64,000 bases of DNA, taken from the NCBI RefSeq assembly GCF_048403405.1, contig NZ_CP183129.1. One strand, given 5' to 3'. The DNA comes from Escherichia coli (GTDB lineage Bacteria > Pseudomonadota > Gammaproteobacteria > Enterobacterales > Enterobacteriaceae). Each line of letters starts with the position of its first letter. Position 1 is the first letter of the stretch. Shown piece by piece: positions 15,001-18,000 of this stretch. Position numbers: made by a program.

Positions 15001-18000
15001 ACTTTTGATATAAATAAAGACTTTAATATTAGATTCTTTTCTAAATCAGGATAAATAAAGTGTTGTTCTCTATTAATGTTATTACAAATGTTTTTTATTA
15101 TATTCTCCCAACCAATAACATTCCGAAGATCTTTATCCAGCAACTGTAAGGCCACATATTGTTCTACAAAGCGGCCTTTTAAAGGTATTCGTGGTAATAT
15201 TACACCTTTCTGCTTATAAACTCTTTCTATCGTATTATCTGGATATTGGATCTTCCTTATTTCTATTCCGTCTTCTTCTGATACCCTTACTAATGGTTCA
15301 TTTTTTAACTTTGACATGTTAACCCTCTTAAATAAAAAACTAACTTTATCCAGATAGTGTCCGTTAAGAAGTTTTCGTTACAACTAAGTTTCTAGGTAAA
15401 TCATGAATCAACCTATAGTATCAAAAACATTTGGTGGTAAACATCTGCATTTATCAAATAGCAGGAGCGATTTAGGGGCATAGGGATAGTGATGATATCT
15501 ATACCCGTGCCCTCTTATGTCAACACAATGGCGTAAACTTAACGCTCACATCTCGCTCAAAGTGTGCTAGGAGATTTGGTTATGTTCAGGTGATACAAAC
15601 CGTCAGTTTGAATCAGAGATAGTACAATTAACAATCGATTCAACCCTCTTCCACCATGCCAGGTAAGCTTTACGCTGTTCTTCTAGATAATCGCTCTTAT
15701 CATAAACTTGCCATACCCCTGGCAGCTTATGACCAAGCATAATTTCTGCGATATGAGGCGCAGTAAGATCAGAAAAATTTGTTCGTGCTGTCCGTCTCAA
15801 GTCATGAAGAGACCAATGAGGGAATTGATATCCTAAACGCCGCCACGCGTACTGCATTAAATTGTAAGGCAGCGACTGTAATGATGTCCTACCGACTGGC
15901 TCCCTGCTTCCTTCCTTAGTAAAAAGCATATCGGAACCGTTGTTCATAGAGATAACGTATTTTATAAGCTCTTCAACCGGTTCAATAATGGGCCGCTTTA
16001 GCGGTTCGCCTGTTATGTCCCCTGTCTTATGTCGTTCAGGTGGTACAGTCCATACCTTATTTATGAAATCAAAATCACCCACCCTAGCAGTAATTAGCTC
16101 CGAACTACGGCAACCAAAATGCAGTAATAGTTTAATGAAGGCCCTGTATTTGGGAACCATTCTAGAGCCATCGATCGCAGCATAAAGAATTTTAATTTCA
16201 TCGTGTGTCAGAAACCGTTTCTTCTGACCTTTACGGATATCCATATCTTTACCCGTGATATCCGACAGCGGGCGAGTTTCAATAAGCTTTCTCTTATACG
16301 CCCAGACATGGGCCTGCTTTGCGTTAATTAGCAATCGGTCTGCTATTGCTGGAGTCTTAGTGCTAAGAGGCTCCAGGACTTCTAACCAATCATGCAATGT
16401 AGCTGCATCGTGAGGGATATTCCCGATTTTAGAGAACAGGTGCAGCTCAAACGAGCGGAGTATCTGTTCAGAACTCTTTTTATTTTTTACACAATATGCT
16501 TCATACCAGGCACGGATCACAGACTCTACCGTCATGGCTTCAGTAGCTTTTCGTTTTTCAGCCTGCTTGACCAATCGTGGATTACGGTTTGACTCGAGTT
16601 CACCACGGAGACGGATAACTTCTTCTCTGGCCTCTTTTAATCCAGTTGCCGGGTAAGTTCCGATATCAAGACGCTCACCTTTCCCTGCCCATTGATAACG
16701 ATATTGGAACACTACGCGACCTTTCGGTGATACTCTGACAGACAGACCATCACGATCGGATTTAACCAAAACCTTATCACGTTCCTTTCCAACGACTGAA
16801 CGCAACCACGCATCAGACAGCGCCATTACTCACCTTGTACAAATCGCAAAACACCTCTGCTGCTTTGTACATTATGTACAAGCATATGTACAGATTTTTG
16901 ATGAAAGCAACCTGATCGATTTAAAGTTACATGAAAGAATTTTCAATTAAAGAAGCCACATAACCATATGTATTTAAATGAGTTATATAACCAGACCTCA
17001 ATTAACTGAAAGGATTTTGAAAGAGTAAAAGAGCTTTAATTTGGGATTAATTATTGGGGTGAGAAATAATGGCAAAAGTGCGGCGCTTCGCCACCTCTTG
17101 CAAATAAGGAGACAACGTCATAATTCTTTCTTCTTGAGTAAGCGGCATCGCGCCGCGCTTGTTGAAAACGAAAAATTGCGGCTATTTTACCCATCAACGG
17201 GGGGAGGCAATCAGTGTTTACACAGGAGCTGCTCCAGTTCGTGCAACGAAGAAACGGTCCAGGTGGGCGCGATGCCTTCTGGTTGCTCGCGATTGTGCGC
17301 ATTCAGCCAGCAGGTCGCAAGCCCGGCGTTGATGCCACCGAGAATATCGGACTCGGCAGTGTCGCCAACCATCAGCACGCGTGAACGGTCAGGATTGCCC
17401 GCCTGTTCCAGCGCATAATCGAAAATTTTCTTATTCGGTTTGGCAACGCCAACTTCTTCGGAAATCACCAGCAAATCGAAATAATCACGCAGGCCCGTGC
17501 GTTCCAGACGCACTTGCTGCAAGGCGCTAAAGCCGTTGGTGATGATGCCAATTTTAGCGTTGCCACGAATGGCGTTAAGCAGAGAAACCGCGCCCGGCAG
17601 CGGCGTACAGATTTCCGCCATCGCATTAATAAAGGCTTCGTTGAGTTTACCCGGCTCGACGTTCAGCCGTTCGGCCCAGCTCTCAAACCGCCCGTGCTGA
17701 AGCTGTAATGAAGTGATCGCGCCGTTTTGATAATCCACCCACAGTGGCTTGTTAACGGCCTGATAGTCCTGAAAATCTTCAGCGGTAAAGGTGACGCTGT
17801 AATCAAGAAACATCCGCTGCAGGCCGGTGAATGAGTCAAAGGTAAACAGCGTTTCATCGGCATCAAAGAAAATCCAGTCCCACTTCATTATTCCACCTTG
17901 TCTTACATACTGATTGGCAACGCCATGATGATGGCGTCTTCGCGACCGTCCGTGGTGGGGTAGTAATTGCGGCGAATTGTCGCCTCGTTAAAGCCTAAAC

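Follow-up and report, generated by a model that had tools for sequence, protein, structure and literature searches.

A lambdoid prophage at the 5' end of Escherichia coli prfC and its likely in-frame repair of the gene

Elements known at prfC and at comparable targets

Prophages that occupy prfC and carry a segment that rebuilds the gene are real, common and already known (Ogura 2007; Hochhut & Waldor 1999; Smyshlyaev 2021). In EHEC O103, a Stx1 phage in prfC alters the N-terminus of RF-3 and takes away the gene's own ribosome binding site (RBS) and promoter (Ogura 2007, PMC2323221), and Stx1a and Stx2c phages at prfC have been catalogued in CC119 STEC (PMC10132054). The prophage described here lies in a 64,000-nt stretch of E. 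coli contig NZ_CP183129.1 (the window), which holds its int-proximal part; its distal end was read in the genome of another strain, E. coli YDC107, and not in the window itself. The prophage part of the window with its flank (17.4 kb) matches both E. coli YDC107 and TUM1226 over the full length at a reported identity of 100.0%, and the sole difference seen against YDC107 is that the window is one C shorter in a C homopolymer run of the yjjG-prfC spacer.

Stx phages at prfC encode integrases 96.6-97.8% identical to that of the window and the same phage-borne N-terminal peptide, and their GenBank records annotate a 'duplication due to insertion'. The window prophage differs from them in being without stx and in having cspF, cspB and ynfU in the interval from Q to holin instead (as read in YDC107); neither stx nor cdt genes are annotated in the 47.5-kb YDC107 prophage, which thus does not class as Stx- or CDT-converting. 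The phages cdtI (Asakura 2007), 2H10 and Ayreon (recorded host E. coli K12) have integrases that are 97.8%, 99.8% and 97.3% identical to the window's, respectively, and their attP sites are built alike, with a mini-ORF, a core and TGTACA arms. However, cdtI carries cdtABC beside attP, where the window prophage has no cdt, and both cdtI and Ayreon differ from it in the slot next to int, which in these two phages is filled by a different, larger gene (>2.1 kb) and in the window by a 239-aa ORF with no NCBIfam or PADLOC match.

SXT/R391 ICEs also insert at the 5' end of prfC and supply a replacement N-terminus and, reportedly, a promoter (Hochhut & Waldor 1999). They share with the window prophage the target codons (FAIISHP) and the repair strategy, the cores overlap, and their integrase likewise combines DUF4102 with a tyrosine-recombinase domain and stands in the published cluster that also contains the cdtI integrase. 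In other respects the two kinds of element diverge: an SXT/R391 ICE is conjugative and not a phage, its integrase is only 38% identical, its int points to the att site with xis in between whereas the window int reads away from attL, its replacement peptide is a different one (MANQDFLNEINKRRTF...), and its identity with the host runs further to the right, through CCTGATGCCG. R997, which we take to be an SXT/R391-family ICE and which is recorded in the plasmid collection, encodes a 413-aa integrase (38% identity to the window's over 99% of the length, E=6e-76, in a pairwise comparison only) and has its own prfC-like start at the circular junction. In P. mirabilis H63, an integrated ICE whose integrase shows the same similarity leaves a native prfC fragment that passes into ICE sequence at the same codons. 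The Int proteins of SXT/R391 elements have been called 'nearly identical', those of the ICEs added in the same study being 99% identical to IntSXT (Wozniak 2009); the window integrase, at 38% to R997, falls well outside that family.

The same logic is found at other targets. Elements specific for dusA, such as IMEVchUSA3, insert at the 5' end of the gene, bring a new promoter and an altered N-terminus and restore the ORF (bioRxiv 10.1101/2021.06.18.448947). From the prfC prophage they differ in the target gene and in the family of the element. With phage 21 and e14 at icd, a case alluded to in Bobay 2013, the coding region contains the att core, and an alternative gene end borne by the element keeps the length of the ORF. 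These two replace the 3' end of icd and keep its native promoter, whereas the prfC prophage replaces the 5' end, the RBS and the promoter.

The attL junction and its attachment core

The features of the junction are collected in Table 1. On the minus strand, positions 17121-17047 read ATG ACG TTG TCT CCT TAT TTG CAA GAG GTG GCG AAG CGC CGC ACT TTT GCC ATT ATT TCT CAC CCC AAT AAT TAA, exactly as the sequence-only reading of this DNA had described it: codons 1-22 of prfC, two further codons and a stop, with the break just before the RF3 P-loop (the next native residues would be DAGKTT). The third base of codon 22 (17056) is already on the phage side; it makes CCG in attB and CCC in attP, both proline, and the bases AAT AAT TAA stand directly after the core in attP of the free phages 2H10, cdtI and Ayreon as well. 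In its left half, the junction follows the K-12 yjjG-prfC region as far as the core and no further, so that its resemblance to prfC is not due to chance, and the host genes upstream of the prfC start (yjjG, rimI, holD, rsmC) are in the K-12 order. That reading had also placed the prfC promoter here. The spacer does align with K-12, but a consensus scan of it on the prfC strand gave no sigma-70 match, and the promoter is presumed from position. The stop of the orphaned ORF is followed 220 bp downstream by the start of int, and a 24-codon ORF of this kind adjoining int should serve as a dependable marker of attL.

Table 1. Coordinates of the features at and near the attL junction (window positions)
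Feature	Position	Strand	Basis or remark
Int-proximal 17 kb of the 47.5-kb lambdoid prophage	1..17056	.	Window ORFs and YDC107 annotation; the rest lies beyond the left window edge
Excisionase (Xis), 64 aa	14127..14321	+	phrog_1553 excisionase, E=6e-36
239-aa ORF in the variable slot next to int	14598..15317	-	phrog_8440 (unknown function)
Tyrosine integrase, 407 aa, DUF4102 arm-binding domain, probably IntSXT subgroup, prfC-targeting cluster	15603..16826	-	Pfam on relatives; phrog_1 integrase
P' arm from core to int; four TGTACA motifs start at 16836, 16866, 16875 and 16887	16827..17056	-	Candidate integrase arm-binding sites
Phage-derived AAT AAT TAA (Asn-Asn-stop) ending the orphaned 24-codon ORF	17047..17055	-	Stop at 17049-17047
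Orphaned native prfC 5' fragment, codons 1-22	17056..17121	-	Start ATG at 17121-17119; matches K-12 prfC as far as the core
14-bp att core ATTATTTCTCACCC, attL copy, prfC Ile18 to the first two bases of Pro22	17057..17070	-	Only copy in the window
Native yjjG-prfC intergenic region with native RBS and presumed promoter, now cut off from the prfC body	17122..17210	-	Aligns with K-12
yjjG, first intact host gene beside attL	17211..17888	-	ORF and annotation

A search of the window found no second copy of the core and no prfC body. The window begins within the lysis region of the prophage, and the other prophage end lies outside it, as had been said from the outset. Taken by itself, this invisible distal end would leave room for the 22-codon fragment to be what an unrelated rearrangement or a duplication left behind, in place of a phage attachment junction. 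The att comparison speaks against such a remnant. We aligned attB of K-12, attL and attR of YDC107 and attP of 2H10, cdtI and Ayreon, whose records carry the att site mid-genome and directly upstream of int. The core ATTATTTCTCACCC is identical in attB, attP, attL and attR, and the flanks exchange partners on either side of it: attB has ACTTTTGCC to the left and GGACGCC to the right, attP has ACCTTTGCA to the left and CAATAATTAA to the right, and reciprocal recombination of the two gives attL and attR. In Ayreon, the identity of attP with attB spans 20 bp and not 14. Moreover, the attR/prfC query and the attL query each match YDC107 only once, which argues against both an unrelated rearrangement and a duplicated remnant; the two junctions occur in nearly equal numbers of genomes, and relatives of the integrase in five other genera break prfC at the same position (see below). 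We consider an unrelated remnant scarcely credible.

In all three free phages, a prfC-like mini-ORF stands directly upstream of int. It has 23 codons, and the first 21 of them come to form the new prfC start. When the phage collection was searched by tblastn with the 23-aa peptide, the matches were the E. coli phage group, records that include host prfC, and otherwise only weak chance matches. A scan of viral contigs with the integrase alignment yielded no greater diversity, its matches all being E. coli prophage ends of 97-100% identity, many of them cut at int. In the 4.2-kb locus of phage 2H10 there are eight copies of TTGTACA where 0.62 would be expected, all within a 420-bp span inside attP and on both arms. 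We infer from this clustering that the TGTACA repeats on the two arms are integrase arm-binding sites.

The element, its integrase and the breadth of the prfC site

The prophage measures 47,458 bp from core to core in YDC107. The window ORFs comprise int, xis, a LexA/cI-type repressor with a divergent small HTH gene (cI/cro-like regulators), replication genes, RusA, a Q-type antiterminator and the start of a lysis cassette, and the annotation of YDC107 adds lambda-like packaging/terminase, head and tail genes, several of them annotated as partial. An immunity region, Q, lysis and terminase/head/tail genes, read as genes and in several cases partial, are those of a lambdoid temperate phage. In phage 2H10, the gene at the position that corresponds to that of the window xis, next but one after int, is likewise annotated as an excisionase.

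The integrase found no specific model in NCBIfam, its best match being a generic domain far below the cut-off. Its relatives have precomputed matches to PF13356, PF22022 and PF00589, and PF13356 (Arm-DNA-bind_3), which identifies the DUF4102 type, is recorded for the cluster representative (96% identical) and for every full-length relative listed. The residues expected of the catalytic domain (R, K, HxxR, H, Y) are invariant in an alignment of 11 integrase sequences as R240, K267, H341, R344, H366 and Y375. In the tree of Smyshlyaev 2021, the cdtI integrase and IntSXT share a cluster in which every member inserts at prfC, and the core of the window prophage, at codons 18-22, agrees with the insertion of that cluster at the 5' end of the gene.

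This shared site and the probably shared integrase subgroup could suggest that the element is an SXT/R391-type ICE or a genomic island and not a phage, a reading to which we give almost no weight. Its content is lambdoid throughout (repressor, Q, lysis, terminase, head, tail), no conjugation genes are annotated within it, and of the SXT/R391 backbone (tra, mobI, setCD/setR) nothing is annotated between the att cores in YDC107, where only lambdoid functions appear. The integrase, too, shares 99.8% identity with its counterpart in phage 2H10 and 97.3% with the Ayreon enzyme, against 38% with that of R997.

When a junction was counted wherever at least 80% of the attL or attR query was covered, 699 of the 5426 complete genomes of E. 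coli (~13%) had attL and 698 had attR, and the two co-occur almost one-to-one. More distant relatives of the integrase come from Salmonella (84% identity), Xenorhabdus (65%), Vibrio diabolicus (52%), Pseudomonas (52%) and Shewanella (51%). In all five of these genera, a 5' fragment of host prfC is found just upstream of int, and its match to prfC ends after CAC CC, at the same position, and the core consensus is the same across the six genera. The site is probably favoured because the beta1/P-loop start of this translational GTPase is nearly invariant at the DNA level across Gammaproteobacteria, which would give such an element a broad host range.

The distal end and the rebuilt gene

At the distal end in YDC107, the core repeat is followed by the rest of prfC: a phage ATG and 21 codons in total lead in frame into prfC codon 23. 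The gene is annotated there as intact (1587 nt), directly after the last phage gene (dinI-like, on the opposite strand), and begins ATG ACA AGC CTT TTG GCC GCA GAG GTA GCG AAA AGA AGA ACC TTT GCA ATT ATT TCT CAC CCG GAC GCC GGT AAA. A longer rebuilt prfC from an in-frame start upstream of the phage ATG is excluded by in-frame stops. The rebuilt RF3 has 528 aa and is one residue shorter than the native protein, since native residues 2-8 (TLSPYLQ) are swapped for six phage residues (TSLLAA); from Glu-8/9 to the C-terminus, 521 of 521 residues are the same as in K-12 RF3. The replaced residues precede the GTP_EFTU domain, which begins at residue 12. The exact chimeric RF3 is found on at least 1000 contigs, with RF3_ECOK1 as its UniRef representative.

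These observations bear out the proposal of the sequence-only reading that a prophage sits inside the 5' coding region of prfC and parts the start of the gene from its body. The native 5' fragment is at attL, the body resumes exactly at the distal core in the four-way att comparison, and the two checks proposed at that time have both been run, comparison with the unoccupied K-12 locus yielding the 14-bp core of attB and inspection of the other prophage end yielding the core repeat and the in-frame fusion. The distal end, as read in YDC107, supplies a replacement N-terminus, so that prfC is structurally rebuilt and not simply truncated; judged by its reading frame, this is gene-restoring integration, in which an in-frame segment borne by the element restores the full-length ORF.

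We regard it as very probable that the junction is the attL of a lambdoid prophage, a close relative of 2H10, cdtI and Ayreon, that integrated at prfC and rebuilt it. The sequences show the first steps. The DUF4102-type tyrosine integrase recombines the core ATTATTTCTCACCC of attP with its identical counterpart at codons 18-22 of prfC, which strands the native promoter, RBS and codons 1-22 beside int as the 24-codon ORF. The prfC-like mini-gene of attP, with an RBS and an ATG plus further codons to 21 in total, ends in the core, and integration thus joins it in frame to prfC codon 23, 47.5 kb away. In this proposal, the rebuilt prfC would then be transcribed from a promoter in the ~220-bp phage arm, for which SXT offers a precedent, and the chimeric RF3 may be functionally equivalent to the native protein.

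Several features suggest, at the level of sequence, that the rebuilt gene encodes a working RF3. Over the 14 codons shared by host and phage DNA there are nine base differences in seven codons, and all are synonymous, although in the nine non-core codons a single-base change would be synonymous in only ~26% of cases; such synonymous-only divergence points to selection on the encoded peptide. The prfC-like segment of ICE R997 independently keeps 11 of these residues with other codons. The tail ahead of them varies freely between genera in native RF3, being MTLSPYLQ in E. coli and Salmonella, MSNSPFLQ in Xenorhabdus, MSGNKV in Shewanella, MSNTPFLS in Vibrio and MTKQAA in Pseudomonas, so that the phage tail MTSLLAA lies within natural variation. 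Finally, the phage copy retains an AG-rich RBS-like stretch and the start context AATTATGAC.

The expression of the rebuilt gene is harder to judge, and prfC might be functionally inactivated in lysogens, its ORF intact on paper and its promoter and RBS lost, a state that would be tolerated since RF3 is dispensable. A sigma-70 scan on the prfC strand of the 220 bp that separate the rebuilt prfC from the phage dinI-like gene detected no consensus promoter. Expression of a rebuilt prfC has been called unknown and prfC non-essential (Ogura 2007, PMC2323221), which would allow a silent gene to persist, and a large survey has counted prfC among the genes disrupted by prophages (Bobay 2013). However, the same scan misses the native prfC promoter, and the lack of a match at attR therefore carries little weight and is not evidence of silence. 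The synonymous-only differences and the independent conservation of the same 11-residue stretch in R997 also argue against inactivation, as do the retained RBS-like stretch and start context, an RF3 body 100% identical to that of K-12, the exact chimera kept intact on so many contigs, and the promoter that SXT is reported to supply (Hochhut & Waldor 1999). We consider inactivation quite unlikely and, going by the sequences compared here, suggest that the disrupted call of Bobay 2013 for prfC is a mis-scoring.

Two LexA-box-like sites sit ~160 bp upstream of the prfC ATG and could hint at SOS control of the rebuilt gene. They lie in the divergent dinI-like promoter and are absent from the Ayreon attP, and direct control of prfC by these distal sites is thus unlikely.

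An unlikely extension of the proposal is that RF3 made from a phage promoter, RBS and tail in ~13% of E. coli is altered in dosage or regulation, and that the stranded promoter at the opposite end reads through into int. A scan predicted no terminator between the stranded host prfC promoter region and int, and transcription from the host promoter may thus run via the 24-codon ORF into the integrase gene. If the extension were true, lysogens could differ from non-lysogens in termination efficiency or in post-peptidyl-transfer quality control, and the prophage would bring about a quiet lysogenic conversion of the translation machinery.

In annotation and comparative genomics, a prfC gene that holds a phage of this family should count as rebuilt and not as disrupted. 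More broadly, the locus offers a clear example of how mobile elements land in extremely conserved DNA while carrying a repair patch for the gene that they split, with phages and ICEs sharing both the landing site and the solution to its repair at an integrase identity of only 38%.

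Attachment-site arms and the prfC starts

In the attachment site (attP) of the closely related phage 2H10, the motifs TGTACA and TTGTACA are clustered on both arms, with eight occurrences observed against 0.62 expected, and among them lies a 22-nt direct repeat, TGTACATATG(A/C)TTGTACATAAT, of which each arm carries one copy. These motifs are candidate arm-type binding sites for the integrase.

On the native prfC side of the junction, an in-frame ATG lies upstream of the accepted start and appears to be used by some 538-aa RF3 database entries. In the yjjG-prfC spacer, a run of C residues (about 17186-17191) is one C shorter in the window than in K-12 and in E. 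coli YDC107, whose genome matches the prophage part of the window; this was the sole difference from YDC107 observed over the 17.4 kb compared, and it is possibly a homopolymer sequencing difference.

At the distal prophage end in YDC107, a phage dinI-like gene is divergent from the rebuilt prfC, that is, the body fused in frame to a phage-borne start. The predicted dinI-like promoter is overlapped by two LexA-box-like sites (CTGT-N8-ACAG), which lie about 160 bp upstream of the rebuilt prfC ATG. The attP of phage Ayreon does not contain these two sites.

Features and their positions (kptA and DUF262/GmrSD coordinates are approximate, converted from the YDC107 annotation)
Feature	Position	Strand	Remark
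Q antiterminator-holin interval	window ~850-2250		L001 (YDC107 locus) 15326-16731
239-aa ORF between int and xis	window 14598-15317	-	match to phrog_8440
TGTACA/TTGTACA clusters	window 16836-16892 (P' arm, core-to-int side)		whole 2H10 attP, L003 1074-1492
Upstream in-frame prfC ATG	window 17122-17148	-	9 codons upstream of accepted start
DUF262 fragment, then GmrSD-type restriction gene	window ~50835-52928		YDC107 annotation
kptA	window ~60201-60754		annotated frameshifted in YDC107
Two LexA-box-like sites	L001 47713-47760		outside window

Gene content of the prophage and its chromosomal surroundings

The 239-aa ORF had no match in NCBIfam or PADLOC. Because phages cdtI and Ayreon carry a different, larger gene (>2.1 kb) in the same slot, the slot beside int is a variable cargo position. 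The Q-holin interval, which is the position of stx in Stx phages, contains in this prophage the cold-shock-like genes cspF and cspB together with ynfU. Outside the prophage, the chromosomal portion of the window includes kptA, annotated with a frameshift, and the DUF262 fragment and GmrSD-type gene, which adjoin symE, hsdRMS and mrr, in the immigration-control region.

Orientation of int

Within 14127-16826, xis and the early genes nearby (homologues of yfdP/Q/R) occupy one strand and int the other, with int read from the attL end towards the prophage interior, an arrangement that differs from that of lambda. No terminator was predicted between the stranded prfC promoter with its 24-codon ORF and int, and therefore transcription from the presumed host promoter of prfC might extend into int in a lysogenic cell.
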